Shown piece by piece: positions 3,170 through 23,620 of a stretch of 64,000 bases of DNA. Under the pieces are notes generated by a model, which worked only from the letters and a program-made list of their open reading frames with translations, was not told where the DNA came from and did not search any database. Both the position numbers and the translations under genes were made by a program. This stretch comes from Candidatus Obscuribacterales bacterium (GTDB lineage Bacteria > Cyanobacteriota > Vampirovibrionia > Obscuribacterales > Obscuribacteraceae). The DNA lies in assembly GCA_046328035.1 (NCBI GenBank), contig JAXLXI010000003.1, positions 73,547 to 137,546 of the forward strand, given 5' to 3'. Within the stretch, counting starts at the first letter, position 1. Each line of letters opens with the position of its first letter.

Positions 3170-3171
3170 CT

Positions 3172-6100
3172 ATGAAGAAACTGCTACTTCTCTTAGCGGC
3201 GGCACTATCCTGTGCCTGTCAGGTGGATGCCCAGGAATCCAGCAAGAAATTGCAGGACGCCGAAAAGTCCTGCCGAGCGCAAATCGAGCAGCTCACTAAA
3301 AATAAGGCGCCTGAGGCGCAGCTGGCGAAAGCCCTTCATGAGTTAGCGGGAATACTCGTTGAGGAGGGTCGCCCGGCAGAGGCAGAGCCCCTCTACAATC
3401 AGTACAGAGACAACGATGCACTAATTCGCAAAAACATTTTCATAGACATTGCTTTAGAAGCTCAGAACTCCGCCGCACGCGAAACTCACGAAAAAGCTTT
3501 TGGTATCGCACCCGATCTCAGCAAAGTAATGTCCGACAACGGCTCAAAAATGGATCCGAACTCGGTCCAGTACGCCCAGTTTCTGGACGATGTTGCAATT
3601 GCGTATCCATACTTCAAAAACAAGACGCAGCCGGTGATTCCAATCATTGTTCAGGCGATGCAGATCAGACAGAAGCTGGAAGGCAACGATAGCCCGTCCG
3701 TCGCTCAGGAAAAGTTTTTGATCGCACATCGACTGGCGGCGCTGGGTGGTGACTATGTTCCGCCCGCGCTGGAAGGGTATGCAATCTGGAAGAAGTTGAG
3801 CGATGCAAAAGATGCTCGCCTCAAGACACCAGCCGTTCAAGCATCGTTGGTGCGCCTGGCTTACCTCTTGTCCGGCGATGAGAGAACGCGGCAGAAGGGG
3901 GTAGAACTGGCAAATCTGGCTCTTGCCAATTTCAGCGCTCTTGCTCCCAACGGTGACTTATCCGTATCGCCTGTTAACGGTCGCGAAAAGTACGGATTGG
4001 GACTGTTGTTTGAAAATCTCGGAGACTATGCAAAGGCTGAAGCTACCTTCGCGGCGTCTCAAATTTGGTACGCAAACCACAACCAGCCGCAAGACAACAG
4101 AGTGCGAACACTGATTGCCCGAGCCAGAGTGTGTCGCCTGGAAGGTGACTATGATGTAGCTTGGTCGAGAGCCAGAGAAGCAGAAGATCTCTGCAAGAAA
4201 CTTTGGGGGCCGACCTATTATCAGGACAACATGCTCGGCATGAATTGCCTGGAGGTCCTCACGTCGGTCGCCCGATCCAAAGGCGATCTGGCAGCAGCAG
4301 AAAACTATGCGCGGCAGCTGTGTGGGAAATCGAACCTGCGATTGAGCAACAGTCAGGTAGCTAGTCATCAACTGGAACTAGCACAAGTTCTCAGCTTGTC
4401 GAACAACGCCGCTGAGGCGGCATCGGTCGCGCAAAAAGCGGTGACAATTCTCTCCAGCATCATCCAACCAACCTACACCGATCAGTCCGAACTAGCCAAA
4501 GCGCACTTGCTGCTTGCCGGGCTTGCCCTTTCCAAGCAAGACTACAAACTTGCGGACACCGAGTATAACCAGGCATTGAAACTGCATCTCAAAGACACGT
4601 CGAGCGCTGGTGTTCTTGGGCTGGTGGCGGACTACAATGGCATTGCATTCGCTAACAGCAAACTTGGTGCCCAAGCAGTTGCGAATAAAAATGTTTTGGC
4701 CGCCTGCGAGAAGCTGGACGAGTTTGTAAAGTCCGGGTTTCCGAAGCTCTCATTTGCAGGTCAGTGCGCGTTTATCAAGTGCGTAGGCGATCAGATCAAC
4801 GCGCTCCTATCATACGGCTCGGCAACTGAGTCAGCCGACAAGCGATTTGAATATGTTATGCGCTGGCAGGGTCTTTTGATCAACGCTGTCAGACAACATT
4901 CCAACCTGGAACGCAGCGGCGACCCGAACACCGTCGCCGCCCTCAGAAACATCAGGCAAGAGCTTTCAAAACTCTCCGCCGGTGGTGCCGGTCAACAATC
5001 CGATCTGATCGGCATTCAGACCCGGACAGAAATTAAAGAAATGCTCGAACGCAAACTCGCCCTCAAAAATACTGCGACCGGCGAGATCGATCCAACGCTC
5101 ACCAAAACAGCTCGCGAGTTCGCAAGCTCATTGAGCAGCGATGAAGTCGTAGTAGACATGCTCCGCTACAAAGATATGCTCACCAACAAGTCGGCATACT
5201 TCGTCTTTGCAGTTTCTAAGTCAGGTGGTGTCAAGGGATTTCGACTGGGTGATGCCGACGACATAGATAAGGTGTCAACCGATTGGCTTCACGCCATGGC
5301 TTCGAACTCTGGCACCGCCCGCGATGTCTCCATTACCGACGACGACGAGAAACCAAACTCGCCAAACGCTGCCAATGCACCCCGCGTCGATTGCACTGAG
5401 CTGGCAAATGCCGTCGGCAAGAAACTTTGGTTGCCCATCAAAGCAGCAATCCCGGCAAGCGCTCCAAAAGTGTGGATTTGCCCCGACTCAAAACTTGCGA
5501 CCCTGCCCTGGTCTGTTCTCATAGATAACAACGAAGGCGGCCGCATACGCACCTGTCAAATCGACAGTCCGCGCGCCCTGCTGCAATTGCGGGCACCTTA
5601 TAAAGCTCCTCAAGCAAAAGATCTCTTTGTGATCGGCGGCATCGAGTTTGCGCAAAAGGCACTTTTCCTTCCGGGTACAGAATCCGAAGCCAACGAAATC
5701 GCCGCGCTTGCAGAGCCAATGAAGCTTCATGTGTCGAAGTTGACTGGTCTTCAGCCGACCAAGGATGAGGTGCTCAAACACTTGAGCAGTTCCACTTATG
5801 CACACCTTGCCACGCACGGATTCTTCGATCCGGCAGACGACCGAGACAAAACGGTGCCCCTGGTGACATTGCCTGGCGACACAGTGAGGTTCTCCGGCAA
5901 AGATCAGGGCGGCATCGACACGAGAGCTGCAGCCGCCTCGCGCAATCCACTTGTCTTGTCCGGTCTTCTGGTGGCACCAATACCGGACGCACAAAAATTG
6001 GGCGGTGGCCAATTCAAATCCAACTACCTGAACATCATCGCGGGCAGCAACAACGATCGGCTTACCGCTGAGGAGTTGGTTGGCCAGGACTTGAGCCACT

Positions 6101-6414
6101 GCAATCTCGTTGTCTTGTCCGCCTGCAACACCGGTCGCGGCAAAGACTACGAAGGGCAGGGAGTGATGGGACTGCGCGCCGCATTAATCGGTGCCGGAAC
6201 GCGAGGAGTCTTGATGTCACTCTGGTCTGTCGATGACAAGGCCACAAAAGAATTGATGAAGGCGTTCTATCAAAATCTGTGGAATCCCACGAAACCGATG
6301 AAACCAGTCGACGCATTGAAGGCGGCGCAAGAGTCGGTGAAGTCAACCCCCGGTGGCAAGTGGAAGCATCCCTACTACTGGGCGGGTTGGGTCTACGACG
6401 GCGTGGGCTGGTAG
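3172..6414 (+). CDS. TPR-repeat / CHAT-domain protein with a Sec signal peptide. It is a tandem paralog of the upstream gene.
   Basis: The ATG at 3172 (M47 of the ORF) opens MKKLLLLLAAALSCACQVDAQ. The domain order is the same as gene 1 and the C-terminal roughly 120 aa are near-identical to it. Confidence 0.85.
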   Translation: MKKLLLLLAAALSCACQVDAQESSKKLQDAEKSCRAQIEQLTKNKAPEAQLAKALHELAGILVEEGRPAEAEPLYNQYRDNDALIRKNIFIDIALEAQNSAARETHEKAFGIAPDLSKVMSDNGSKMDPNSVQYAQFLDDVAIAYPYFKNKTQPVIPIIVQAMQIRQKLEGNDSPSVAQEKFLIAHRLAALGGDYVPPALEGYAIWKKLSDAKDARLKTPAVQASLVRLAYLLSGDERTRQKGVELANLALANFSALAPNGDLSVSPVNGREKYGLGLLFENLGDYAKAEATFAASQIWYANHNQPQDNRVRTLIARARVCRLEGDYDVAWSRAREAEDLCKKLWGPTYYQDNMLGMNCLEVLTSVARSKGDLAAAENYARQLCGKSNLRLSNSQVASHQLELAQVLSLSNNAAEAASVAQKAVTILSSIIQPTYTDQSELAKAHLLLAGLALSKQDYKLADTEYNQALKLHLKDTSSAGVLGLVADYNGIAFANSKLGAQAVANKNVLAACEKLDEFVKSGFPKLSFAGQCAFIKCVGDQINALLSYGSATESADKRFEYVMRWQGLLINAVRQHSNLERSGDPNTVAALRNIRQELSKLSAGGAGQQSDLIGIQTRTEIKEMLERKLALKNTATGEIDPTLTKTAREFASSLSSDEVVVDMLRYKDMLTNKSAYFVFAVSKSGGVKGFRLGDADDIDKVSTDWLHAMASNSGTARDVSITDDDEKPNSPNAANAPRVDCTELANAVGKKLWLPIKAAIPASAPKVWICPDSKLATLPWSVLIDNNEGGRIRTCQIDSPRALLQLRAPYKAPQAKDLFVIGGIEFAQKALFLPGTESEANEIAALAEPMKLHVSKLTGLQPTKDEVLKHLSSSTYAHLATHGFFDPADDRDKTVPLVTLPGDTVRFSGKDQGGIDTRAAAASRNPLVLSGLLVAPIPDAQKLGGGQFKSNYLNIIAGSNNDRLTAEELVGQDLSHCNLVVLSACNTGRGKDYEGQGVMGLRAALIGAGTRGVLMSLWSVDDKATKELMKAFYQNLWNPTKPMKPVDALKAAQESVKSTPGGKWKHPYYWAGWVYDGVGW

Positions 6415-7257
6415 TTAGCCGGAAATTCTGCGATGTCCAATAAAAACGTGCTTGCCCTGCAGGGACTCTACTAGTCCCATAAAATCGGCCAGTGTGGTTT
6501 GCGGATCTTGATCCGGATTGAGCGCGACCGCAAGTCCTGCGAGATCGCCGTAGGAGCTGTTTCCTTCCTGAGCTTTCTCAATGATCGCCGCCGCCACATG
6601 TCCCACGGACAAGAAACGAATCTCTTTGTCCTCAGGATCTCGATAAACAAGGACAATACTCGGCTCCGCCTTCACGTCTACCGGCAACTCATCCGACTCT
6701 TCTTCCAGCTTCTCGGCGATGGCGATGAGATCGAACTGATACCGCCGAATAAGCAGAGCCGGGTTGACCAGAGGTTTGAATCCCGCGAACTCCTCAGCCG
6801 ATTGCAGCAGGCACGTATCGGATTGATAATCGAATTCCGTATCATCGAAATCAATCATGTCGCTTTCGGAAAACTCGTAATCGACCAGGTCCGTCAAGTA
6901 AGGAAACTTTTCCTTCACCTGTTCGTTCAAATGTTTTTCGATGAATGTCTTGAAGTGTTCGCCGGCGCGACTGGATCTGTAGCTGGTCGGCGGGCAGATG
7001 TTGCGATAGTCTTCCACGATTTCGTCCCAGTCTTCTCCTAACAGTTTTTCCGTCAGAGGAAAAGTCATGCTCATCGTTTCGTAGTGTTTGACTTGCAAAA
7101 CTTGAACGTAGATCATCAGCCGTTCTTTATCGATTTGAGCGGCGATCTCGGGACCAATGTCCGAGAAGTCGCCTGCCAAGAATCGCTCCAATGCGTCGCG
7201 ATTGGTCCATAATTTGGTCATTGCCTTTTCGACTTCGGAGAGCGTGGTACCAGGCAT
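6415..7257 (-). CDS. DUF2063-like partner protein of the DUF692/MNIO enzyme (MbnC/BufC/HvfC-type)
   Basis: It lies 4 nt downstream of the DUF692 gene on the same strand. It is 280 aa with an N-terminal region compatible with DUF2063. The call rests mainly on the conserved gene pairing. Confidence 0.55.
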   Translation of the reverse strand: MPGTTLSEVEKAMTKLWTNRDALERFLAGDFSDIGPEIAAQIDKERLMIYVQVLQVKHYETMSMTFPLTEKLLGEDWDEIVEDYRNICPPTSYRSSRAGEHFKTFIEKHLNEQVKEKFPYLTDLVDYEFSESDMIDFDDTEFDYQSDTCLLQSAEEFAGFKPLVNPALLIRRYQFDLIAIAEKLEEESDELPVDVKAEPSIVLVYRDPEDKEIRFLSVGHVAAAIIEKAQEGNSSYGDLAGLAVALNPDQDPQTTLADFMGLVESLQGKHVFIGHRRISG

Positions 7258-7261
7258 AGTT

Positions 7262-8179
7262 TTATCCGCGTACCCGGTGTGACGTCTTCGCCTGATTCGC
7301 CTGAGACTTGCTGTCGAGCCAGCCTGGTTGTGCTGCTTTGACTACAGCTCGAATATCGTCCAGCTCTGCCAGTAACTCAGAAAACTCATCGGGAAAATGC
7401 TGATCGCGCTCGAGGAGAATCGCGTTGACTGGAACCCGTTCCATCACATACTTAAGCAGATCCAGAACCGGTCTTGGAGGTGTGGCACCATGCGTATCCA
7501 CATAGGCATCGAATTCGGGAGCATGGTGGTGACCGGCTATGTGAATTTGTACGGTGCGCTCAAGCGGAATCTGATCCATAAATTCGATAGGATCGAACTT
7601 GTGATTGAGCGAATTGACATACACATTGTTGATATCGAGCAGAAGCCCGCAATCGGCTTGCTCCAACACTTCAGAAAGAAACTGAGCTTCATCCAGCTCG
7701 CTGCCGGGCATACGCATGTAGTACGTGATGTTTTCGAGAAGAAACGGAATGTCCGTCATCTCCTGGACTTTCTTCGCGCGTGTCACGCAATGCGCAACGG
7801 CTTCGCGTGAGAACGGCAGCGGCAGCAACTCGTGCGTTTGCACGCCGCCAAAGGCGCTGAAACAAAGATGGTCGCTCCACCAAGGAGCATCGATATGCTT
7901 CAGGAGTTTCTTCAGAGACCGGATGTAGTCCTGGTCTATTTCGTCGGTGCTCCCGAGAGACAGTCCGACCCCGTGCGCGATTAGAGGGAACACCTTTAAA
8001 GCCCTGTCCAAGCGGGCTCGCGATTTTCCGCCCAGTCCCATGAATTGCTCGGAGATTATTTCCAGCCAGTCGATCTGCTCGGCGTGCTCGAAGGTTTCGT
8101 CTTCCACTTCGTTGCGCAGCCCCATGCCGACACCCAGTATCGGCAATTGCTTTTTCACATCGAGAAACTTAGACGTCAT
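7262..8179 (-). CDS. DUF692 / UPF0276 family TIM-barrel protein (MNIO, MbnB/BufB/HvfB-like)
   Basis: The N-terminal LGVGMGLR motif is typical of UPF0276. The protein is about 305 aa. The motifs HLCFS, IHIAGHHHAPEFD and DTHG provide His/Asp/Glu metal-ligand candidates. Its start overlaps the upstream stop as TAATG. Confidence 0.8.
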   Translation of the reverse strand: MTSKFLDVKKQLPILGVGMGLRNEVEDETFEHAEQIDWLEIISEQFMGLGGKSRARLDRALKVFPLIAHGVGLSLGSTDEIDQDYIRSLKKLLKHIDAPWWSDHLCFSAFGGVQTHELLPLPFSREAVAHCVTRAKKVQEMTDIPFLLENITYYMRMPGSELDEAQFLSEVLEQADCGLLLDINNVYVNSLNHKFDPIEFMDQIPLERTVQIHIAGHHHAPEFDAYVDTHGATPPRPVLDLLKYVMERVPVNAILLERDQHFPDEFSELLAELDDIRAVVKAAQPGWLDSKSQANQAKTSHRVRG

Positions 8180-9570
8180 TATTTAGCCTTGCGCTTGCTT
8201 ACGGGAAGTCCACAATCAGCGGGATTGGAATCACCGGCGTACGACCAGTCAGGTCGCACAAATTTTGTGTCGGCGCAATAAATTGCCATGCCGGCCATCG
8301 AGTCTTGCGGCTGCGCCGTCGGATTGACGTAAGTCGCTTCCAGCTCGTAATGCTTGCCCCCTATCAAAGGAATACCTTCGCTGGAACTCAGCGTGTCGAT
8401 GTGCAAAATCTGCAGCGGCTTTTCCTGCGTTCGCGCCTTGACCAAGATCACTTCTTTGCGCGCTTTACCGTTGCACTCGACCAGCGCAAATTTTTCACAA
8501 TAAGGATGCACGTGAGCCATGACCAGATGAACGCGTCTGTTCACCGCGGAGAAATCGGCATTGGCAGGCGATGTGATGGTGCTGACGGGACTTGTGTAAG
8601 TGTGAGTACCGGGTGGCACCACCCAGTGCCCGATTTGTTTGCGCCCCAGCTCATCACTGAAGATCATGCTTCGCATGCTGCTCGGTGCCGGCACGCCATC
8701 AGACATCAAAGAGCAGTCCGGGCACATGTTGTGTTCTTCCTGTGCCGCCTCCGGCGAATTGCGATCGATCACCACATTGATCACCGGGTAGTACCAGAAT
8801 AGAGCTTTGATTGGATAAACAAGTTCCGAATCGCGGACGAATGAAAGTATGCAGCGTTGTTTCACACGCCGGGGCTTGTCGCTGTCTCTATTGATTGCTT
8901 GAAAAATGAATCGCCAGGTCTCGTCGCTGGCCACCGGCAATCCATAGCCGCGAGGAAAGGTGAATTCGGTCTGCCCCTGCGAGAGGACGATGTGGCGCAT
9001 GCTTCCTGGTTGTTCGCTCTCAGGAAACACCTGGCTGCGGAAATCTAGATCGACATCAATGGTCGAGTGGCAGAAAAATTCGTCGGTAGGTAAAACCTGA
9101 TCGTTTTCGTCCAGGACTTCCAGCTTGATCGACTTCAGCCAGAGCAACTCTCTGCCTTTTGTGCGCGAGGCTTTCAGCCCGATCACACCTGCATCCGTTA
9201 CATCGGACTTCGCCCCTTTGGCACTGCCGGACATAGCAGGTGCCGGTTTTGAACAACCTTCAACGAATTGTACAAGGGCTTCTGGAATTTGAATCTGCTT
9301 CGACGCAATCAGATCGGCAATGCGCAGCGGCTCGCGCACATAGGGACCTTCCATGGATCGATATTTTTTGTGCAGGTCGAAAGGACCGATAGTAATTTCG
9401 ACGGTGCTCAGCGGTCCTTCCGTTTGCTGACTATCGCGTTGGACAGGCAGCGCTGTACTTACTAGAGAATCAAACCCTGCGCCCATTGCGGGCAACTTGA
9501 GCTGGTTGGCAAATAAACTACCAACCAGACACAACGTTGCTAGCACGGACGCAGGGCTAAATTTTCTCAT
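8179..9570 (-). CDS. Secreted 463-aa protein of unknown family, co-operonic with the MNIO genes
   Basis: The N-terminal signal peptide is MRKFSPASVLATLCLVGSLFA. It contains several Cys/His clusters, including HVHPYCEKFALVECNG and MCPDCS. I could assign no domain. It is translationally coupled to the DUF692 gene. Confidence 0.6.
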   Translation of the reverse strand: MRKFSPASVLATLCLVGSLFANQLKLPAMGAGFDSLVSTALPVQRDSQQTEGPLSTVEITIGPFDLHKKYRSMEGPYVREPLRIADLIASKQIQIPEALVQFVEGCSKPAPAMSGSAKGAKSDVTDAGVIGLKASRTKGRELLWLKSIKLEVLDENDQVLPTDEFFCHSTIDVDLDFRSQVFPESEQPGSMRHIVLSQGQTEFTFPRGYGLPVASDETWRFIFQAINRDSDKPRRVKQRCILSFVRDSELVYPIKALFWYYPVINVVIDRNSPEAAQEEHNMCPDCSLMSDGVPAPSSMRSMIFSDELGRKQIGHWVVPPGTHTYTSPVSTITSPANADFSAVNRRVHLVMAHVHPYCEKFALVECNGKARKEVILVKARTQEKPLQILHIDTLSSSEGIPLIGGKHYELEATYVNPTAQPQDSMAGMAIYCADTKFVRPDWSYAGDSNPADCGLPVSKRKAK

Positions 9571-9585
9571 TGAACCTGAGGCTGA

Positions 9586-9930
9586 CTACTTGGTTTCAGC
9601 TTCCTTTTTGGCATCTTCGGCCGGTTTGGATTCGCCGGCTTTGTCGGTCTTGCCATGCTTCTTGGCGTTGCCGTAGTGGCATCCGCACGGATATGTGCAA
9701 CCGCCGCCTCTGTTTTTGCCAGGACCTTTTTTCTTGCCGGCAGGCTTGGCTTCTTCTTTCTTGGTGTCGTCTTTCTTATCGGTGTCGGCCAGGTTGGTTC
9801 CCTTTTCAGCGATTGCCATTCCGGTCGATTTGGCTGCTACTGCCGGTTGACCTGAGCTGACCAGAACACCAGAGCTGACGCTGATCGCTGCGAGCAATAC
9901 CGTCAAATCGGTCTTGTTCAATTTTTCCAT
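9586..9930 (-). CDS. Putative RiPP precursor peptide. It is Sec-secreted, Lys/Glu-rich and carries a single CTYPCGCHYG core motif.
   Basis: The ATG at 9930 is preceded by GGAGG at a 5-nt spacing. The ORF-track start at 9942 is a TTG. The signal peptide is MEKLNKTDLTVLLAAISVSSGVLVSSGQPAVAA. The remainder has three Cys in a 7-residue window. It sits 15 nt upstream of the next gene. Confidence 0.65.
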   Translation of the reverse strand: MEKLNKTDLTVLLAAISVSSGVLVSSGQPAVAAKSTGMAIAEKGTNLADTDKKDDTKKEEAKPAGKKKGPGKNRGGGCTYPCGCHYGNAKKHGKTDKAGESKPAEDAKKEAETK

Positions 9931-10046: not shown

Positions 10047-12164
10047 TTATCTAATGACAAGCCTGAGAGTCGTCGTGGTCCACTCGTCAAGCGAGTTGCT
10101 GTCTTCCTCGCTGACGCCCAGATCGCGGGTGTTGTGACCACCGACGCTGCGGCGGAAAAGTTCTTCCAGCGCCGTACCGGGACCGGACGGAGCAGCACGG
10201 CTGACGCCAGACTGTCCAAGTATGGTGAAATCAGCCGGCTTGGTTGTGACGATAAATTTGAGGGTCTCCACTCCCAGGGGCGGCTTGATGCTAAGCAAGC
10301 GCTTCTGTGCCGGCCACCGGAAAGTACCTTTAGGAGGCAGCGGATATTTGGCATTGTCCGGCGGATAGAGCACAGCGATGCTGCCGCTGGTCTCAATTGC
10401 CAAAATAGCGATGTAGATATTTTCGTCCGTGGTGTTGGTCAACTTGAGTCGCAACTTGTCCCCCACGTGCACGGTGGGCACAAGTTGATTTCCTGGAACG
10501 GGATCTTCTTTGAAGGTCGGCTCGCCCCATTCGTCTTTACCAAGTGGGGTAACTTTCAGCACTTCGATCTTCAGAGCGCCCTTGAGAGGCGAGACTTGAT
10601 TATCGAGAGCCAACACGCGCTGCTGTCGAGCTCCCTTTTCCAGAGCGCTGGCTATGGTGTCGGCAGCGTGTGGATCGTTTTCATCCACCCAGACATCAAA
10701 GAGCGGCGCACCATCCTTAGTGGCAATGAAGTAACCGTTGCCTTTGGCGTCACGAGTGCCGGCGGAACTTTTCTCCTGCTGGAAGTTATTGTATGTGTCC
10801 TTCACGACAGACATGTCCCAGCCGCCGGCGTCGCGTGTTTTGAACGGATCAGCGGTTTTGCTGGCAATTTTGACCAGTTTGGGGTCGACCGAATCAGTCA
10901 GGCCCTTGGTGAACTGCTGCCAGCTGGCTGAGTTCGTTTCTCCAGGAACGGCATTGAATGCTGTCACATTGAGCGGACCGGCGCCGAAGTGCGGCGTGAC
11001 GATTTTGGCTTTGGCCGACTTCAACGCTTCCTGATCAACGCCTGCCGGTCTTTCGATGGTGGCACTGAGTGCATTGCAATCTTTGGCGCTGGCGACACCC
11101 AACAAATCTTTGTTGCCGCGCAGCTGAGTTGCTTCCTTTTTATAGAACGCCACCAGCGTGCCTGGATCGATCCCCTGCAGAGAACCGGCGGCAATGGTGA
11201 TGCTCTTGTCGGTGACTTCCGAAACTGGAATGTACGGATCGGCTCGATCGGTTGCATCGCCGAATATGAAACGGTCGATGTCGCCTTCGATTTGCGGATG
11301 CTGATTGGAACGGTTGCCCGTCACTCCCGTTGCCACCGCTCCCCACAAGTCGCGATATGTAGTACCGGCGTTCGCCTGCTCAAGCGCATCAATCAAGTTT
11401 ATTGTCAGAAGTCCATTGGCACGGTCACCCTGCGGAGTATCGGTGTCGGACTCGCCGGCAGTCTCGTTGGGCAAGCATCCCGCCATTGACACATAAGTAG
11501 CCGGTGGAGCGCTTTTGGCGTCCTTTGGTTTTTGTGGAGGTTGCGGTCTGTCATCAGTCTCGGCCTTGCGCAGTCTCACACTCACGGTCGCGTCTCGAAC
11601 ATTGGAGCCGGAGTGGCAGCAATCAGTGATTATGGTGATGTTTTTCGTATATTGACCGAGCTGGTTGATCAGGTCTTCCAGATCGTCGTCGGTAAGGTCG
11701 TAGTGATCAGGCTGGCGAGAATCTACCGGCACGAGAGTTTCATCCATACCGTCCTCCTCATCGCCGTTCATGTCGGGCACCTGAGAGCCATGCCCGCTGT
11801 AATGAAACACACAGATGGCATTCGGATTTGCTTTGGCATTCTCAATCAATTGAGCCTTGAACGCATCAACGATGGCTTGTCTGGTTGCCTGGCGCGAGAG
11901 CAAGACTTTTATATGTTTGTCGTCATCAGGAAACCCGAAGCGTGTCGTGAGAAGCTTGCGCATGTCCTTCGCATCGTTTTCACAACCATCCAGCTTTTCC
12001 AGGCGTTTGGAGATGTAGTCATCAATGCCAATCAAAAGGGCAAACTTGTTTTGATTGCCCGGCTGCTGGGGAGCGTCAGCTGCGGCAGCCATACGAATCG
12101 GTCCGAGTACCGCCACCAGCATCACGCAAAGTGCCACCACTGGAGAGATCAGATGTCGTTTCAT
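10047..12164 (-). CDS. Secreted peptidase C14 (caspase/metacaspase-fold) domain protein with a roughly 450-aa C-terminal extension of unknown function
   Basis: It has a signal peptide. Caspase signatures present are FALLIGIDDY, HYSGHGSQ and DCCHSG. Confidence 0.8.
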   Translation of the reverse strand: MKRHLISPVVALCVMLVAVLGPIRMAAAADAPQQPGNQNKFALLIGIDDYISKRLEKLDGCENDAKDMRKLLTTRFGFPDDDKHIKVLLSRQATRQAIVDAFKAQLIENAKANPNAICVFHYSGHGSQVPDMNGDEEDGMDETLVPVDSRQPDHYDLTDDDLEDLINQLGQYTKNITIITDCCHSGSNVRDATVSVRLRKAETDDRPQPPQKPKDAKSAPPATYVSMAGCLPNETAGESDTDTPQGDRANGLLTINLIDALEQANAGTTYRDLWGAVATGVTGNRSNQHPQIEGDIDRFIFGDATDRADPYIPVSEVTDKSITIAAGSLQGIDPGTLVAFYKKEATQLRGNKDLLGVASAKDCNALSATIERPAGVDQEALKSAKAKIVTPHFGAGPLNVTAFNAVPGETNSASWQQFTKGLTDSVDPKLVKIASKTADPFKTRDAGGWDMSVVKDTYNNFQQEKSSAGTRDAKGNGYFIATKDGAPLFDVWVDENDPHAADTIASALEKGARQQRVLALDNQVSPLKGALKIEVLKVTPLGKDEWGEPTFKEDPVPGNQLVPTVHVGDKLRLKLTNTTDENIYIAILAIETSGSIAVLYPPDNAKYPLPPKGTFRWPAQKRLLSIKPPLGVETLKFIVTTKPADFTILGQSGVSRAAPSGPGTALEELFRRSVGGHNTRDLGVSEEDSNSLDEWTTTTLRLVIR

Positions 12165-17604: not shown

Positions 17605-17743
17605 AGCATTGCCAGCCAGAATACGCAGCGCCTTATCCTGACAACGCCGCACGAGGCGAACGTGACAGGAAACTAGGGCTTGGTCGGCGATTTTGCGATA
17701 TCCTTGCACATCGGTGTAAGTCTGAATCGCGGAGGGACATGCG

Positions 17744-19360
17744 ATGCGCGCTGTCGTCGGGTTGCTGGTAGGAATGCTGACTCTCGGCATCGGAATGGCT
17801 GGAACTTCGCATTGGTGTTCGCCGGCGCTGGCGACTGTTGCTTGCGTGGCAGAAGTAAAGGAAGCACCAGAGCACAAAGGTATTGTCTTCGAGCAGTTCT
17901 ATCTTCCTTGCCTGTCGCAAGCATCTTATTTGATTGGCGACACCAAATCAGGCAAGGCGATTGTTGTCGATCCTGAACGCGACATCGACAAGTACATAGA
18001 GTCGGCTCAGAAACACGGACTCAAAATCACGCACGTGTTCTTGACGCACGTGCATGCCGATTTCGTCGCCGGACACCTGGAACTGCAGCGACGCACGGGC
18101 GCGCAGGTTTGCATGGGTTCGGAAGCAAAGGCTGCGTTCAAGTTTCTTCCTTTCAAAGATGGTGACAAACTGACCTTCGACGGACTGGAGGTGCTAGCCA
18201 TTCACACACCGGGGCACACGCCGGAAGCGATATCGCTGGCGATTGTCGATAAGCAGAGTGCAACCGGCGGCGCGTCCGATAACGCAGCACCGTATGCGGT
18301 ACTGACCGGCGATGCGTTGTTCATCGGTGATGTGGGTCGCCCGGACTTGCTGGCATCGTCGGGTTATACCGACAAGCAACTGGCTGGCATGCTCTACGAG
18401 TCATTGAGAAGCAAGCTGATGAAACTGGACGATGCGGTGCTCGTCTACCCAGCGCATGGTGCAGGGTCGCTGTGCGGCAAAAATATGAGCACAGAAACTG
18501 TTTCAACCATCGGCGAGCAGAAGAAGACTAACTATGCGCTGCAAGAGATGGAGAAAGATAAGTTCATAGCGCTGGTAACTGCGGATCAACCGCCGGCACC
18601 GAAGTATTTCAGTTATGACGCCAAGCTCAACATGAGCAAACATCCCTCGCTGGAAACTGTAGTCGCTCAGAAACTTAAGCCGTTAACTCGCGAGCAACTC
18701 TTGAGACTGAAAAATGGTGGCGCACAAATATTGGATGTGCGTGAAGCCGACGACTACGCCAAGGTGCACTTCGTGGATAGCCTCAACATTCCGCTCTCAG
18801 GTCGGTTTGCTGGGTGGGCGGGAGCGTTTCTCGACCGCGAAATCCCGATTGTTTTGATCGCCCCATCTGGCAAGGAGAAACAGGCTGCGCTGCGTCTGGG
18901 CCGTGTCGGTTTCGATAACTATTCGGGATTTTTGAGTGACGCGATCGATCAGCTCTCGCTTGAAGAAGGAACGCTTGTGAAAGCGCCGCGCACAGATGCG
19001 CAACAACTGGAAAGCGAGGTTAAAGGCCAAACACCACCGGTAGTGCTGGATATTAGGACCAAAACGGAACGCGGCGAAGCGCAGATTGCTAACTCGCTGT
19101 TCATTCCGCTTATTCAGATGCAGACAAACATCGCTGACGTGCTGAAGCAACAACTCGCCGATGTTCCGAAGGACAAAGAGATTGTGGTTTACTGCGCCAC
19201 CGGGTTTCGGTCGTCCCTGGGAGCCAGTCTTTTGCGCCAGCAGGGTTTCAAGAACGTCAGCGATTTGCGTGGTGGCATCACGGCCTGGCAAAAAGCAGGA
19301 TTCCCGGTACAGACCGGAGAGTGTGCCGCGGCGGCCAAACCTGCACTGCCACCAGAGTGA
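17744..19360 (+). CDS. MBL-fold persulfide dioxygenase fused to two rhodanese domains (CstB-like)
   Basis: The metallo-beta-lactamase motif is THVHADFVAGH, followed by HTPGHTPE. The first rhodanese-like domain has no active-site Cys. The second has CATGFRSS. Confidence 0.75.
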   Translation: MRAVVGLLVGMLTLGIGMAGTSHWCSPALATVACVAEVKEAPEHKGIVFEQFYLPCLSQASYLIGDTKSGKAIVVDPERDIDKYIESAQKHGLKITHVFLTHVHADFVAGHLELQRRTGAQVCMGSEAKAAFKFLPFKDGDKLTFDGLEVLAIHTPGHTPEAISLAIVDKQSATGGASDNAAPYAVLTGDALFIGDVGRPDLLASSGYTDKQLAGMLYESLRSKLMKLDDAVLVYPAHGAGSLCGKNMSTETVSTIGEQKKTNYALQEMEKDKFIALVTADQPPAPKYFSYDAKLNMSKHPSLETVVAQKLKPLTREQLLRLKNGGAQILDVREADDYAKVHFVDSLNIPLSGRFAGWAGAFLDREIPIVLIAPSGKEKQAALRLGRVGFDNYSGFLSDAIDQLSLEEGTLVKAPRTDAQQLESEVKGQTPPVVLDIRTKTERGEAQIANSLFIPLIQMQTNIADVLKQQLADVPKDKEIVVYCATGFRSSLGASLLRQQGFKNVSDLRGGITAWQKAGFPVQTGECAAAAKPALPPE

Positions 19361-19371
19361 GACGTTGATGC

Positions 19372-20598
19372 ATGGATGAGCTGCTCGGCGCTCGATTAGA
19401 TAGGCGTGCATTTCTGAGAATCGCTGCGCTCGCCGGTACAGCAGCGTCTGGACTGGCCGGCTGTGTAGAACGCGCCGAGAAGTCGCTAATTCACGTGCCG
19501 GCGGGGCAAACTGTCGCGCGGTTTCCTGAGAAAGCGCAGTTGATCATGCTCACCGATCGGCCGCCGCAGTTGGAAACGCCGCTTTACTATTTCAAGGAAA
19601 TGCTGACACCAAACGATGCATTCTTTGTGCGGTGGCACTATGCGGGCATTCAAACCAGCATCGACCCAAAGAGTTTCACCTTGAGCGTCAACGGGCTGGT
19701 AGGAAACCCGATCTCGCTCGGGATGGAAGAGTTGCGCAAGCAGTTCGACCCAACAACGATCACCGCTGTCTGCCAGTGTTCCGGCAACTCTCGCAGCCGC
19801 ATGCTCCCACCAGTGCCCGGCGGGCAGTGGGGTGAGGGCGCCATGGGCAACGCACGCTGGACCGGAGTGCGGTTGAAGGATTTGCTGAAGAAAGCCGGCA
19901 TCAAATCTGGTGCGGTCGAAGTCGCATTTGCCGGCACTGACGAGGCACCACTTTCCAACATGCCGAAGTTTTGCAAGTCGCTTAAAGTCGACCACGCTTT
20001 ATCGGGCGAGGTGTTGGTCGCCTATGAAATGAACGGTGCACCGCTGCCGGTGCTCAATGGATTCCCGTTGCGCCTGGTGGTGCCTGGTTGGTATGCGACG
20101 TACTGGGTAAAGGCGCTGACCGAGATAACGGTCTTGCCGGAAACGCTGGATAGTTTCTGGATGAAAACCGCATATCGCATTCCGAACAATGCCACCGCCA
20201 ATGAATTGCCGAAGACACTGGCGACCGACACCGTCCCCATCAACAAGCTCAACCTGCGGTCGATATTCGTGGTACCTGAAATGAACGCCACAGTTTCCTC
20301 CGGCGAGCAAATCCAGTGTCAGGGAATTGCATTCGATGCCGGATCCGGCATAAAGCAGGTTGATGTATCCACCGACGGCGGCAATACATTTATGCCTGCA
20401 ACTCTGGTTGGACCAGACCTGGGCAACTACAGCTGGAGGCAGTGGCGTTTTGATTGGCGTCCGGACAGGGTCGGCAAGCACACACTCGCCGTCCGCGCCA
20501 CCAGCAACTCGGGCGCCGTGCAGACCAACATACCCCACTGGAATCGCAGTGGATACATGCGAAACGTAATCGAGAAAGTGGAGGTCAAAGTCGTTTGA
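19372..20598 (+). CDS. Sulfite-oxidase-family molybdopterin enzyme, SorA-like catalytic subunit with a Tat signal
   Basis: The twin-arginine motif is RRAFLRIAALAGTAASG. The Mo-Cys loop is CQCSGNSRSR. A C-terminal dimerisation-like domain is present. Confidence 0.7.
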   Translation: MDELLGARLDRRAFLRIAALAGTAASGLAGCVERAEKSLIHVPAGQTVARFPEKAQLIMLTDRPPQLETPLYYFKEMLTPNDAFFVRWHYAGIQTSIDPKSFTLSVNGLVGNPISLGMEELRKQFDPTTITAVCQCSGNSRSRMLPPVPGGQWGEGAMGNARWTGVRLKDLLKKAGIKSGAVEVAFAGTDEAPLSNMPKFCKSLKVDHALSGEVLVAYEMNGAPLPVLNGFPLRLVVPGWYATYWVKALTEITVLPETLDSFWMKTAYRIPNNATANELPKTLATDTVPINKLNLRSIFVVPEMNATVSSGEQIQCQGIAFDAGSGIKQVDVSTDGGNTFMPATLVGPDLGNYSWRQWRFDWRPDRVGKHTLAVRATSNSGAVQTNIPHWNRSGYMRNVIEKVEVKVV

Positions 20599-20987
20599 AC
20601 CTCCGACAGCCGCTTCTTCCCATAGCTGTTTTCACCGTGCTGATGTTATCGGCATGTTCAAGCACTAGAACCGCCGGTACTGCTCCGGTGGCGCCCGATG
20701 CTCACGCAAATGTGCCGGCAGACTACATGGAAGCACGTAATGTCCAGTTCCCCGTAGATCAAGGCGTCTTCCCGCAGGTGAAGGGCTACGATAAGTTTGC
20801 CGCCTCCTGCACTATTTGCCATTCGCTGCGTTATATCGAGATGCAGCCGAATTTCCCAAAGACTACATGGGCAAAGGTTGTGCATAAGATGGTCACCACT
20901 TACGGTGCACCTATATCCGATGCCGACGCCGCCGAAATCATTGATTATCTGGCTACTATTAAAGGAAAGCCGGAGGCGCCGAAATGA
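20595..20987 (+). CDS. Mono-heme cytochrome c, SorB-like electron-acceptor subunit
   Basis: The TTG start at 20595 overlaps the upstream stop and has GGAGG 9 nt upstream. It has a lipoprotein-like signal peptide. The single CxxCH motif is CTICH. Confidence 0.65.
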   Translation: MNLRQPLLPIAVFTVLMLSACSSTRTAGTAPVAPDAHANVPADYMEARNVQFPVDQGVFPQVKGYDKFAASCTICHSLRYIEMQPNFPKTTWAKVVHKMVTTYGAPISDADAAEIIDYLATIKGKPEAPK

Positions 20988-23620
20988 CTCATCAGGCAGA
21001 GGGCAATTTCGACTCGCCACCGATTGCTACCGGGCTGATACGCGCTCACGGCATAGCAGCATTTGTGATGCTGGCGCTGGTCGCCACATTCGGCGTTCTC
21101 GCCGCGATGAAATTGCATTCGCCTGATGTAGCCGCCAACAGCGCGGCAATGACCTGGGGACGCATCCGCTATAGCCACACGCAAGCGGTATTCTTTGGAT
21201 GGCTCGGCAACGCTTTCTTGATGTTTCTCTATCACGCAGTGCCCAGGCTGGCGCGCCGTCCGATCACAAGCCCTAAGCTGGGATGGTTCCTTTTCGCACT
21301 CTGGAATTGCGCCACTGTCGGCGGCTTAGTGCTGATGTTGATGGGACATAGCCAGGCTCTGGAATGGGCGGAGTTTCCTCTGGTCATCGATGGCGTAATC
21401 GTGCTTTCGTTTGCGCTCATGGTGGCACAATTTGTGGTACCGCTTTTGCGCTCGCGGTTGCACGAATTGTTTGTTTCCGGCTGGTACATACTGGGTGGCT
21501 TGATATTCACATTGCTCGCCTACCCGGTCGGCAATCTCGTGCCAGAGCTTCTTCCTGGCGCTCAGGGAGCTGCATTTAGTGGTCTGTGGATCCACGACGC
21601 GATCGGACTCTATGTGACACCGCTGGTGTTGTCGATTGCTTACTTTGTCATTCCTGCCGTCAGCAAACGCCCTATATTCAGCCACTTCTATTCGATGCTC
21701 GGTTTTTGGCTGTTGTTCTTCGTCTATCCGCTGAACGGCACGCACCACTATGTTTTCTCGGCACTGCCCATGGAGGCGCAGACGGGTGCCATCATCGCCT
21801 CGGTCATTCTTGGCATCGACGTAATTATCGTCGTGTCCAACCTGCTCCTCTCGATGCGCAAAGCCGAAATACGCGGCAGCCTCCCGCTCCTGTTTGTAAA
21901 AACCGGAACCATCGCTTATCTGATCGTCAGCCTGCAAGGCTCAATGCAAGCCTTGATGCCCGTCAACAAATTGCTGCACTTCTCAGATTGGGTTATTGGA
22001 CACTCGCACCTGGCCATGCTGGGATTCGCCACCTTCACCACCATCGGTGGCATGGCCTACGTGTGGCAAGCGACCCCGGAGATGAAGTTCAATTCGCGAG
22101 TTTTCAAATACTGCTATTGGCTGTTGCTGGTCGGCTTGCTCTGGATGGTTGTCGACCTCAGCATCGCCGGCGTGGTGCAGGCACAACTCTGGCAGGATGG
22201 ACTGCCGTGGCTTGAGTCTCTGCGCGCATCCAGGCAATACTGGGTGTGGCGCACATGGTCGGCAGTGCCTCTGATCGCCGGATTTGTTCTGCTATTCGTC
22301 TCGTTTTTCACGGGCAACAAAACTGCGGTTGACGAAGGTGCTGAACGAGCGAGCGACGCAATCTTCACCGCATCGGAAACACCTCCTCCGCACTCAACTC
22401 ATCCCTGGTTACGCATGGCGTATCTCAGCGCCTTCGCAGCCGGCTTTGGGTTGTTCGTGTTTTCTTTTGCCTTGCTCGGTATCGCTCCCGGTCTTGCGTT
22501 GGCGCAGCAAATCAAACTCACCAAGCCACCTGACATGGTGCCGCTGACTGCGCAGGAAGAACATGGAAGAAACATTTACGCCCGCGAGGGCTGTGGCTAC
22601 TGTCACACGCAACAGGTGCGTTTCGTCCTGGCGGACGCCAAACGATTTGGTGCCCCGACGCGCGCATGGGAAACCACCTTCGACTACCCGCAACTCTGGG
22701 GCACCAGACGGATAGGACCGGACCTGGCACGTGAAGGTTCGGTGCGCAGCGATGACTGGCAGCGAGTCCATCTATTCAATCCGCGGCTGGTGGTGGCACA
22801 ATCGAACATGCCCCGCTATCCCTGGTTGTTCGATGGCTCGGCCGCCTTGCCGAATAAAGATGGGCAAGCGTTGCTGGCGTATGTAAAAACCCTGGGACGC
22901 GCTCGCATGATGTCTGGTAATGCAAATGCCGGTCCCCTACCTGGATGCAACTGCCCGGATGAGGTGCGAGACCTCGAGAGTCCCGACGTTCCGCTCAATA
23001 CAAATGCCAACATGGCAATCAACAATGTCACATACGCGCCGCCGACCGGTACCGGCGCACCCGACGCTGGTCGAGGCGGCACTCTCTTCAAACAGAACTG
23101 CGCATCCTGCCACGGATACTCCGGCGAGGGAGATGGCGATGCCGCAGCACTGCTTTTGCCCAAGCCCGCCGATCTCGCCGCCAAAAACCTCTCGCACGAC
23201 CGCATCGGCAACGCCATACTCAATGGCGTGCCTGGAACCGCGATGCCAGCATGGCGCGATCTGCCACCAGGTCAAATCGAGGATTTGATCGCGTTTGTGC
23301 AGACTTTGTCGCCGGCGCGAAGCGCGTCACCGGATGGGCCGTTACCTAACGTCGCTATGAACATTTCAGGTGGTAGGCTGTTCGCCCAAAACTGCGTGTC
23401 GTGTCATGGAGTGAGAGGCGACGGCAATGGTCCGGCTGCTGCCACGCTGCCGCGCCGTCCTCCGAGTTTCCTCACTGATCGACCAACGCAAGAATACGCC
23501 GAGCAGGTCATTGCCAACGGTGTCCCGGGAACATCGATGCCACCCTGGACGTTGCGCCTCACACAACAAGAGCGTGCCGACCTGGCAACTTACGTCCGGT
23601 CGCTCTACGTCCCAAAATAG
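20984..23620 (+). CDS. ccoNOP: cbb3-type cytochrome c oxidase with CcoN, CcoO and CcoP fused in one polypeptide
   Basis: The CcoN motif NGTHHYVFSALP matches GPHHLHYTALP, and HSHLAMLGF is present. The CcoO-like CGYCH follows, then two further CxxCH motifs, CASCH and CVSCH, for CcoP. The start overlaps the upstream stop as ATGA. Confidence 0.8.
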   Translation: MTHQAEGNFDSPPIATGLIRAHGIAAFVMLALVATFGVLAAMKLHSPDVAANSAAMTWGRIRYSHTQAVFFGWLGNAFLMFLYHAVPRLARRPITSPKLGWFLFALWNCATVGGLVLMLMGHSQALEWAEFPLVIDGVIVLSFALMVAQFVVPLLRSRLHELFVSGWYILGGLIFTLLAYPVGNLVPELLPGAQGAAFSGLWIHDAIGLYVTPLVLSIAYFVIPAVSKRPIFSHFYSMLGFWLLFFVYPLNGTHHYVFSALPMEAQTGAIIASVILGIDVIIVVSNLLLSMRKAEIRGSLPLLFVKTGTIAYLIVSLQGSMQALMPVNKLLHFSDWVIGHSHLAMLGFATFTTIGGMAYVWQATPEMKFNSRVFKYCYWLLLVGLLWMVVDLSIAGVVQAQLWQDGLPWLESLRASRQYWVWRTWSAVPLIAGFVLLFVSFFTGNKTAVDEGAERASDAIFTASETPPPHSTHPWLRMAYLSAFAAGFGLFVFSFALLGIAPGLALAQQIKLTKPPDMVPLTAQEEHGRNIYAREGCGYCHTQQVRFVLADAKRFGAPTRAWETTFDYPQLWGTRRIGPDLAREGSVRSDDWQRVHLFNPRLVVAQSNMPRYPWLFDGSAALPNKDGQALLAYVKTLGRARMMSGNANAGPLPGCNCPDEVRDLESPDVPLNTNANMAINNVTYAPPTGTGAPDAGRGGTLFKQNCASCHGYSGEGDGDAAALLLPKPADLAAKNLSHDRIGNAILNGVPGTAMPAWRDLPPGQIEDLIAFVQTLSPARSASPDGPLPNVAMNISGGRLFAQNCVSCHGVRGDGNGPAAATLPRRPPSFLTDRPTQEYAEQVIANGVPGTSMPPWTLRLTQQERADLATYVRSLYVPK

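Follow-up and report, generated by a model that had tools for sequence, protein, structure and literature searches.

Why would a bacterium encode a terminal oxidase directly behind the genes for a sulfite dehydrogenase? The question is raised by a 64,000-nt (64-kb) stretch of DNA from Candidatus Obscuribacterales bacterium (GenBank assembly GCA_046328035.1, contig JAXLXI010000003.1, positions 73,547 to 137,546), which we will call the window. Four open reading frames (ORFs) on its + strand, at 17744-23620, encode an enzyme similar to the persulfide dioxygenase CstB, proteins similar to the two subunits of the sulfite dehydrogenase SorAB, and a cytochrome oxidase of the cbb3 type (Table 1); their positions are as given by a first-pass annotation of this DNA. 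We propose, as the probable reading, that the four genes are an operon for a self-contained, periplasm-facing branch of aerobic respiration that oxidizes sulfur.

Four tightly packed genes

The spacer between genes 1 and 2, as read from the sequence, is just 11 nt (19361-19371), not the 12 nt of the first-pass annotation. The stop codon of sorA (TGA, 20596-20598) overlaps an in-frame TTG start codon for sorB at 20595, forming TTGA, and GGAGG is found shortly upstream of the TTG (20580-20584). Similarly, the stop codon of sorB overlaps the ATG of the oxidase gene (ATGA at 20984-20987). The tightly packed layout on one strand, with both overlaps, had already been described in the first-pass annotation, and its domain calls for all four genes agree with our comparisons to hidden Markov models from Pfam and NCBIfam. 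These junctions (11, -4, and -4 nt), together with their conservation across phyla, argue for a single transcription unit.

On either side, an unrelated gene for a TPR lipoprotein lies 139 nt before gene 1, and a convergent gene for an Fpg-like glycosylase ends 10 nt past the stop codon of the oxidase. The GC content of the four-gene cluster is similar to that of the remaining window.

Gene 1 is preceded by a ribosome-binding site (GGAGGG at 17733-17738). The ~100 nt upstream of it are a candidate for a conserved promoter/operator or leader: window positions 17640-17743 are ~90% identical over ~100 nt to positions 2097-2195 of a related locus, L070, and the upstream genes differ (TPR in the window and DsbA-like in L070). 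This conserved region has no match in Rfam, and scans of the 64-kb window with Rfam and for tRNAs gave no matches. A scan for sigma-70 promoters and intrinsic terminators found nothing beyond what is expected from shuffled sequence, with no sigma-70 consensus in the region upstream of gene 1.

Table 1. Locations of the features discussed in the text. Positions are in the window unless a locus is named; L numbers are our names for related loci. TM, transmembrane; UTR, untranslated region.
Feature	Location	Strand	Description
Gene 1, CstB-like persulfide dioxygenase	17744..19360	+	538 aa; Lactamase_B and two Rhodanese domains (Pfam)
Predicted Sec signal peptide of the CstB-like protein	17744..17833	+	aa 1-30, predicted cleavage after A28-L29-A30
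Gene 2, SorA-like molybdenum sulfite dehydrogenase, catalytic subunit	19372..20598	+	408 aa; best NCBIfam match SorA
Gene 3, SorB-like monoheme cytochrome c	20595(TTG)..20987	+	130 aa from TTG; best NCBIfam match SorB
Gene 4, fused cbb3-type oxidase	20984..23620	+	878 aa; COX1, FixO, and two cytochrome c domains
CcoN-like catalytic domain of gene 4	20984..22318	+	aa 1 to ~445, 12 TM helices expected; Pfam COX1 2e-58 (aa 20-428)
Linker, 13th TM helix (~aa 476-507), and CcoO-like monoheme domain of gene 4	22319..22900	+	CGYCH 537-541; FixO 5e-38, aa 491-621
C-terminal diheme CcoP-like domain of gene 4	22901..23620	+	CASCH 706-710, CVSCH 804-808; two Pfam Cytochrome_CBB3/Cytochrom_C domains, ~694-874
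Conserved 5' region of gene 1, putative promoter/operator or 5'-UTR	17640..17743	+	~90% identity to L070
~50-aa TM ORF of related loci	L072:10793-10945; L074 ~9700-9850; L075:9674-9817; L076, L077 ~9724-9897		
Distant oxidase subunit I-like ORFs	L110:259-921, L139:1726-2283, L148:2213-3004		

A sulfite dehydrogenase with a tethered cytochrome

Strong homology suggests that the product of gene 2 oxidizes sulfite to sulfate at a Mo-Cys center. It contains Pfam's Oxidored_molyb (3e-54) and Mo-co_dimer (1.4e-10, a C-terminal dimerization/Ig-like domain), and it has a signal for export by the twin-arginine translocation (Tat) system (RRAFLR, amino acids 11-16, nt 19402-19419). The NCBIfam models score it at 500.7 bits for SorA, 195 for SorT, 159 for SoxC, and 46 for MsrP. 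Its alignment to SorA from Starkeya novella (PDB 2blf_A) has E = 1.6e-114, as compared to 8e-4 for YedY/MsrP. On these scores, we rejected the possibility that gene 2 encodes MsrP/YedY.

The active site is conserved as well. The molybdenum ligand Cys136 (nt 19777-19779), in CQCSGNSR, aligns with the Cys of VNQCSGNSR in 2blf_A, which we take to be the molybdenum ligand Cys104. Arg87 and His89 (FFVRWH) and Tyr268 (KTAYRIP) are identical to R55, H57, and Y236 of the S. novella enzyme, and the PDB entry for the Y236F mutant (2c9x) differs from the active-site motifs of gene 2 at that position only. The Mo-Cys is intact and the protein does not group with MsrP/YedY, which leaves standing the first-pass view of a Tat-exported, SorA-like molybdenum enzyme.

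Directly after sorA, gene 3 encodes a cytochrome c with a single heme-binding motif, as expected from the first-pass annotation, and with a Met ligand: CTICH (72-76) and Met99 (the Met of KM, the sixth ligand) align with SorB from S. novella (PDB 2blf_B, E = 2.6e-9). Translation from the TTG gives the protein a lipoprotein signal (LMLSAC), with the lipobox LSAC and Cys21. Each of the 9 aligned SorB orthologs has an anchor, be it a lipobox Cys or an uncleaved transmembrane (TM) helix, and a low-complexity linker after it. Because of this anchor in every ortholog, we predict that SorB is membrane-tethered here, unlike the soluble subunit from S. novella.

A cbb3-type oxidase in one piece

Gene 4 had been described as a cbb3-type oxidase, and the domain models, the metal ligands, and a diagnostic tyrosine bear this out. 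We add that a single chain fuses CcoN, CcoO, and a diheme CcoP-like domain, so that the monoheme and diheme cytochromes are domains of one protein and not separate subunits. The best matches in PDB are CcoN chains of cbb3 oxidases (9g6b_A, 6xkw_n, and 3mk7_A, E = 1e-35 to 2.5e-34). The CcoO region matches the CcoO chains 8smr_F and 3mk7_B (E ~1e-32), and the C-terminal domain has weak matches to CcoP chains. The topology expected from known cbb3 structures, with the C-terminus of CcoN inside and the anchor of CcoO running from inside to outside, would be consistent with the fusion.

The six His ligands, two for heme b, one for heme b3, and three for CuB (His65, 342, 340, 204, 254, and 255), align to the structures of CcoN. 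Furthermore, His65, Glu127, His204, Tyr248, His254/255, and His340/342 are invariant in 37 of 37 aligned members of the clade of oxidases to which gene 4 belongs (described below); the Glu of the Ca site is among the residues invariant across these 37 members. Tyr248, in helix VII (VYPLNGTHH), is six residues before the HH pair and aligns with the Tyr of YIWAGPHH in 9g6b_A, which is presumably Tyr251 of the Pseudomonas stutzeri enzyme. This cross-link Tyr separates O2 reductases from cytochrome c-dependent nitric oxide reductases. Although gene 4 is just ~30% identical to characterized CcoN, the alignments indicate that it is a member of a divergent clade of the C family, with every feature expected of an O2 reductase.

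One difference is Gln318 (nt 21935-21937), which replaces Glu323 of P. stutzeri CcoN; we take Glu323 to be hydrogen-bonded to the His ligand of heme b3. All 37 clade members have Gln, and so do most of the distant fused cbb3-like genes that we sampled. We considered this Gln as a marker for the clade and rejected it on account of those distant genes.

Conservation of the gene order

In a genome scan, the window matched a locus (L001) of 'Candidatus Obscuribacteraceae bacterium MAG_AAO_H10.39' at 98% identity, in line with an origin in the non-photosynthetic Vampirovibrionia/Melainabacteria. We then considered the contexts of the ten closest homologs of the oxidase (52-82% identity). All 10 have a SorA-type molybdenum enzyme and a small gene of the size of sorB directly upstream, mostly with overlapping junctions, and tblastn confirmed both SorA and SorB in 7 of the 7 contexts that were checked in this way. 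The full four-gene order, with the MBL-rhodanese gene (MBL, metallo-β-lactamase) first, is found in 6 of the 10 (L070, L071, L072/73, L074, L075, and L160), all on contigs of the Obscuribacterales type, with unrelated flanking genes. The oxidases of these loci are 54-59% identical to that of the window, except that L070's is 82% identical (and its proteins are 82-87% identical overall). L160 has an additional 177-aa gene before the oxidase. The remaining 4 contexts, from Acidobacteriota (L076, L077, L158, and L159), have SorA, SorB, an extra gene of ~167 aa, and the oxidase, and the MBL-rhodanese gene is not first; L076 is named 'Candidatus Sulfotelmatobacter sp.' by its source.

SorA, SorB, a cytochrome, and the oxidase also occur together in another locus from Acidobacteriota (L002, of Bryobacterales) and in several species of Pseudomonas, namely P. 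poae, P. graminis, P. khorasanensis, and P. spelaei (the Pseudomonas SorA-SorB-oxidase loci are L003-5, L022, and L032). Because orthologous loci with unrelated flanks share this order and have junctions that are likewise tight or overlapping, we consider the cluster to be beyond chance.

The related loci have additional small genes. Between sorB and the oxidase, a gene of ~167-177 aa is found at L003:9439-9945, L032:9433-9936, L076:6501-7004, L158:4501-5004, L159:4492-5004, and L160:4475-5008. In Pseudomonas, the gene at this place encodes a membrane-anchored monoheme cytochrome c, to which the extra gene of L076 and L077 has a weak match (31%). Also, a conserved ORF of ~50 aa, with a single TM helix and the motif E[EA]PKYxxL, begins at the stop codon of the oxidase or overlaps it, which is a CcoQ-like position (Table 1). 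L158-L160 have ORFs of 54-64 aa which are candidates for the same gene.

The matches to all four query proteins have identical coordinates and identical percent identities in L003 (P. poae), L004 ('Xanthomonas sp. WHRI 1810A'), and L005 (P. graminis). This suggests a very recent transfer, mislabeling, or contamination.

A clade of oxidases next to sulfur-oxyanion dehydrogenases

Across 36 loci from the genome scan with oxidases at least 45% identical to gene 4, SorAB is encoded upstream in 7 and a homolog of the thiosulfate-oxidizing enzyme TsdA is encoded directly downstream in 28; the last one (L020) has a divergent CstB-like gene. The TsdA-type protein (~330 aa) is membrane-anchored, matches Pfam's SoxA-TsdA_cyt-c, is homologous to the structures 4wq7_A (E = 4e-34) and 5lo9 (a TsdBA fusion, E = 1e-38), and contains the Cys-ligand motif RIQGCxxSMN. 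In the loci whose oxidases are 35% identical or less, 0 of 33 have a gene for SorA or a full-length homolog of TsdA. In a neighbor-joining tree, a long stem sets the oxidase clade apart from other cbb3-like loci; within the clade, the TsdA-linked sequences are one group and the SorAB-linked sequences are a neighboring paraphyletic set. As members of this clade are encoded beside SorAB or TsdA, we suggest that it is specialized to accept electrons from dehydrogenases of sulfur oxyanions.

CcoO and the diheme domain are on one polypeptide in the clade members that we checked, and often the same chain also includes CcoN. We rejected the idea that the three-part fusion extends throughout the clade: in Pseudomonas and in several Acidobacteriota, there is a stop and a restart between CcoN and the rest, whereas the window and most of the other loci have a single ORF. 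The split genes are in L003 (TAA at 11396, in frame with the downstream gene), L022, L032, L023-L031, and L033.

The TsdA-linked loci are L006-L019, L021, L023-L031, and L033-L036 (for instance, L006:12785-13777 and L008:9302-9985), and they usually also encode a Tat-signal protein of ~230 aa. Neither this protein nor the other accessory proteins of related loci (the anchored monoheme cytochrome and the small TM ORFs) matched any family in Pfam or NCBIfam.

We also started from the other end, with 48 metagenome loci that encode SorA homologs (48-60% identity) and have enough sequence downstream. In ~13 of the 48, sorAB is followed by the gene for a stand-alone diheme cytochrome (41-46% identity to residues 697-875 of the oxidase), and no oxidase gene comes after it. 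We take this as a sign that this type of SorB naturally pairs with the diheme module, be it on its own or part of an oxidase. The free diheme cytochrome lies just downstream of sorB in soil metagenomes (L078, L079, L085, L086, L088, L090, L092, L093, and L095-L097). Three metagenome sorAB loci have, 3-4 kb upstream of sorA, a distant ORF (21-23% identity) that is similar to subunit I of heme-copper oxidases (Table 1), which hints that sorAB may also be linked to other families of oxidases.

A CstB-like enzyme with a predicted export signal

The product of gene 1 aligns over the whole of its catalytic part with PDB entries 3tp9_A (E = 3e-83) and 3r2u_A (E = 1e-56). PDB describes 3r2u as an MBL-family protein; we take it to be CstB from Staphylococcus aureus. 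The first-pass annotation had proposed a CstB-like dioxygenase with an MBL domain and two rhodanese domains. The Pfam domains, the iron ligands, and both functional cysteines are all present. The iron ligands are in THVHADF (101-107), His158, and Asp190; they align with those of 3tp9, 3r2u, ETHE1 (4chl), and bacterial persulfide dioxygenases, and they make up the 2-His-1-Asp site for Fe(II). Cys244 (HGAGSLCGK) aligns with the Cys of HGAGSPCGK in 3r2u and is equivalent to C201 of CstB. Cys484 (VYCATGFRS) is equivalent to C408: it aligns with the active Cys in the rhodanese domain at the C-terminus of 3r2u. The middle rhodanese domain has no Cys and is a pseudo-rhodanese, while the C-terminal one has the active Cys.

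Relative to 3tp9 and 3r2u, the product of gene 1 has an N-terminal extension of ~45 amino acids, with a positive start, a hydrophobic core of 18 residues, and an A-L-A motif. Five orthologs keep the n-region, the h-region, and the AxA despite low sequence identity. Among the 120 closest clusters of the family, 44 have such an extension, 70 start at the MBL domain (464-475 aa), and 6 are intermediate. (We identified the signal peptide from the alignment and the n/h/AxA pattern.) Because this signal-peptide-like extension is conserved, a cytoplasmic location like that of CstB would not fit gene 1, and we conclude, by inference, that it belongs to an exported subgroup of CstB-like enzymes that is predicted to be periplasmic.

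The proposed electron path

We propose that electrons flow from sulfane sulfur to O2 in four steps. First, the Sec-exported CstB-like enzyme would bind sulfane sulfur at the cysteines of its rhodanese domain and active site and would use O2 to oxygenate it to sulfite. The sulfur could come from persulfide, from polysulfide, or possibly from thiosulfate via the rhodanese domain, and no energy would be conserved in this step. Second, Tat-exported SorA would convert sulfite to sulfate at its Mo-Cys center, as its strong homology indicates. Third, two electrons would pass to the heme c of SorB, which homology and the signal sequence place, with its lipid anchor, at the surface of the membrane. Fourth, SorB would reduce the C-terminal diheme domain of the oxidase, as suggested by synteny and by the free diheme homologs. 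By homology, the electrons would then go via the CcoO-type heme and heme b to heme b3-CuB, where O2 would be reduced, and protons would presumably be pumped as in other cbb3 oxidases.

This branch would bypass the quinone pool and the bc1 complex, and only the last two of the six electrons from sulfane sulfur would be used to conserve energy. All four proteins would act on the periplasmic side, given that the heme c domains of the oxidase are expected to lie outside, after the 13th TM helix.

The part of the path that runs from SorA via SorB to the cbb3-type oxidase had been put forward in the first-pass annotation, and it is strongly backed by the conserved synteny (10 of the 10 closest contexts). 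We infer the "dedicated" role of the oxidase from this synteny as well. The start of the path had been given as sulfide or persulfide. Persulfide, or sulfane sulfur, is a reasonable substrate, but sulfide is not supported because we saw no sulfide-oxidizing gene, be it for sulfide:quinone oxidoreductase (SQR) or flavocytochrome c (FCC), in the cluster or among the ~44 ORFs of the window that we compared to Pfam. The first step seems to be the weakest, because CstB from S. aureus reportedly releases thiosulfate instead of free sulfite.

Points against the proposal

Several observations weigh against our proposal. All three of the proteins that would carry electrons are below the NCBIfam cutoffs: gene 2's score for SorA is under the 600-bit equivalog cutoff, gene 3 scores 78 bits for SorB with a cutoff of 93, and gene 4 scores 161 bits for ccoN (TIGR00780) with a cutoff of 583 and 301 bits for the fused I/II model (PRK14485) with a cutoff of 1080. 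Judging from its score, gene 2 is in a divergent subgroup of SorA and is not what NCBI would call an equivalog.

The loci were drawn with patterns derived from our queries, so the samples are biased. On the SorA side, the full oxidase follows in only 7 of the 48 loci, and those beyond these 7 and the ~13 with a diheme cytochrome have neither. The window also lacks both the gene for the anchored monoheme cytochrome and the small TM ORF that join the oxidase in other lineages. Among these ~44 ORFs, which make up most of the window's ORFs of at least 150 aa, we saw none for SQR, FCC, Sox, Dsr, sulfur-responsive regulators, cofactor or cytochrome maturation, ccoGHIS, or other respiratory proteins.

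The roles of the first and last genes could also differ from those we propose. The CstB-like enzyme might compete with SorA for sulfite instead of supplying it. And the oxidase may be the cell's general cytochrome c oxidase as well: O. phosphatis has been described as having a cbb3 terminal oxidase (PMC4040986), and a bc1-type complex has been described in it too.

Alternative explanations

The alternative that survives best, though we think it unlikely, is that gene 1 does not make sulfite from persulfide for SorA. It might act like CstB and combine sulfite with persulfide to form thiosulfate, or it might split thiosulfate. In the latter case, the rhodanese domain would yield sulfite and an enzyme persulfide, the dioxygenase would form a second sulfite, and the operon would be a pathway from thiosulfate to sulfate. 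In its favor, both cysteines (the equivalents of C201 and C408) and the three-domain architecture are kept. Also, since the sister group of oxidases is linked to a thiosulfate-oxidizing enzyme, thiosulfate is a plausible common substrate. However, forming thiosulfate would drain the substrate of SorA, which is a poor fit to the strict co-occurrence of these genes, in the order cstB-sorA-sorB-oxidase, in seven loci.

It is improbable, in our view, that the operon is for detoxification and that the oxidase is a general one. In this scenario, SorAB and the CstB-like enzyme would clear toxic sulfite and persulfide (such as from the breakdown of organosulfur compounds), and the oxidase would be an ordinary high-affinity enzyme that also serves bc1. 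SorAB in heterotrophs is reportedly often considered to be a sulfite detoxifier, and we saw no genes for carbon fixation or for other lithotrophy in the 64-kb window. But in three phyla, oxidases of this clade are found beside SorAB or TsdA, namely in 35 of 36 loci from the genome scan and in all 10 of the 10 protein contexts. And because Pseudomonas has several other terminal oxidases, its sorAB-linked oxidase would be an extra, accessory enzyme. Energy conservation and detoxification can also coexist.

We also considered that gene 4 might be a nitric oxide reductase or another variant of the heme-copper family, and not an O2 reductase. This could account for the low identity to CcoN, the low score for TIGR00780, and the Gln in place of Glu323. 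But the three histidines that bind CuB and the cross-link Tyr of helix VII are invariant, the best matches in PDB are all chains of cbb3 oxidases with no NorB chain among those listed, and the Gln is common in other fused cbb3-like genes. We reject this identification as very improbable.

Finally, the scan for promoters and terminators gave no signal either way, but it is hardly credible that these genes are adjacent by accident and expressed independently, given the overlapping stop and start codons and an order that Vampirovibrionia, Acidobacteriota, and Pseudomonas all keep between unrelated flanking genes.

Other features of the window

At 6415-9570, on the - strand, a gene of the MbnB/TglH/ChrH family (DUF692; 7262-8179), whose members modify ribosomally synthesized peptides, is paired with a gene of the DUF2063/NGO1945 type (6415-7257). 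An ORF of 463 aa with no match in Pfam (8179-9570, - strand) precedes the DUF692 gene. This is a possible peptide-modification cluster. At 65-6414, 10047-12164 (- strand), and 45655-46764, the window encodes two tandem TPR-CHAT proteins, a caspase (Peptidase_C14)-DUF4384 protein, and a calpain-like protease; the tandem TPR-CHAT proteins are giant (1034 and 1126 aa as listed, with overlapping ORFs). Elsewhere in the window are several TPR proteins and two Ser/Thr kinases.

What is new and why it matters

Each part of this system is of a known kind (a CstB-like enzyme, a SorAB-like dehydrogenase, and an oxidase of the C family), and the flow of electrons from sulfite to cbb3 oxidase is known physiologically. 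What appears to be new is a distinct clade of cbb3 oxidases that is co-inherited with SorAB or TsdA across phyla, a membrane-tethered SorB, a putative exported subgroup of CstB-like enzymes, and the combination of these in one four-gene operon in Obscuribacterales. In the full-text literature (which leaves most subscription journals outside), we found no account of a sorAB-cbb3 operon, of fused oxidases linked to TsdA, or of an exported CstB, although absence there is no proof. Current annotations of these genes say only 'cbb3-type cytochrome c oxidase subunit I/II' and 'MBL fold metallo-hydrolase'.

More tentatively, we speculate that the whole clade consists of substrate-dedicated oxidases. 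Each would form a fixed unit with a tethered dehydrogenase (a sulfite:O2 or a thiosulfate:O2 oxidoreductase) that bypasses quinone and bc1, and the genes would move between phyla as a cassette. The version in Obscuribacterales would also have taken up a persulfide dioxygenase, perhaps the first that is periplasmic, so that the whole path from sulfane sulfur to sulfate would lie outside the cytoplasm.

In the usual picture of a respiratory chain, quinone and cytochrome c are shared pools that feed general oxidases. A co-inherited clade would instead be a hard-wired, substrate-specific branch, and this would explain the extra oxidase in bacteria such as Pseudomonas. Two of the carriers, P. poae and P. 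graminis, are culturable. If our speculation is correct, then a 'cbb3 oxidase' that is used to infer aerobic respiration in relatives of the cyanobacteria is part of a laterally acquired sulfur module. The debate about the evolution of aerobic respiration leans on the oxidases of these non-photosynthetic relatives, so it matters if an oxidase is a general enzyme or part of a mobile sulfur cassette. Similarly, an exported CstB-like enzyme would put the chemistry of persulfide dioxygenases in the periplasm, which raises the question of what carries sulfane sulfur there.

Comparison with known systems

The CstB-like protein has the same order of MBL, pseudo-rhodanese, and rhodanese domains as S. 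aureus CstB (PDB 3R2U) and its homolog 3TP9, with the same iron ligands and both functional cysteines. To our knowledge, the persulfide dioxygenases described so far, CstB included, reside in the cytoplasm or in mitochondria, whereas gene 1 has a conserved signal peptide (~30-45 aa) that predicts a periplasmic product. Its neighbors are sorAB and an oxidase gene instead of cstR, cstA, and sqr.

SorAB from S. novella (PDB 2BLF) likewise has a Tat-exported Mo-Cys subunit and a monoheme cytochrome c, and the active-site Cys, Arg, His, and Tyr are kept in the window's protein. But SorB from S. novella is a soluble chain of 81 residues, while the window's SorB is lipid-anchored (TM-anchored in relatives) and has a linker of ~40 aa. 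Furthermore, SorAB from S. novella relies on a free cytochrome c550 and an aa3 oxidase, and the operon in the window runs on into a terminal oxidase.

Like CcoNOP(Q) from P. stutzeri (PDB 3MK7), the oxidase is of the C family and has the six His ligands, the Glu of the Ca site, the cross-link Tyr, the heme of CcoO, and two hemes of the CcoP type. Unlike it, the window's enzyme has all three subunits in one 878-aa chain, is just ~30% identical in its CcoN part, and has Gln for Glu323; it has neither ccoQ nor ccoGHIS nearby, and it is tied in genomes to dehydrogenases of sulfur oxyanions.

The sister group of oxidases resembles the TsdA/TsdB systems (PDB 4WQ7 and 5LO9), as these oxidases are encoded beside a TsdA homolog that has the motif for a Cys-ligated active-site heme. 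TsdB-type diheme cytochromes were proposed to feed cbb3 oxidases (PMC9237845). In the window, SorAB takes the place of TsdA, and the TsdA of the sister loci has a membrane anchor and is adjoined (before or after) by an uncharacterized Tat-signal protein.

A functional precedent comes from Campylobacter jejuni, whose sulfite respiration uses the same chain, from sulfite to c-type hemes to O2, and reportedly ends at a cbb3 oxidase. Its SorAB hands electrons from sulfite to cytochrome c (PMC4178425). But the cbb3 oxidase of C. jejuni is a general one that is encoded elsewhere, while the oxidase in the window is co-encoded and co-inherited with SorAB.

A parallel in gene organization is the rus operon of Acidithiobacillus ferrooxidans (cyc2-cyc1-coxBACD-rus), a "vertical" branch in which the oxidation of a substrate, c-type carriers, and their own oxidase are likewise encoded together. 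That operon, however, oxidizes Fe(II) and has an oxidase of the aa3 type and different carriers.

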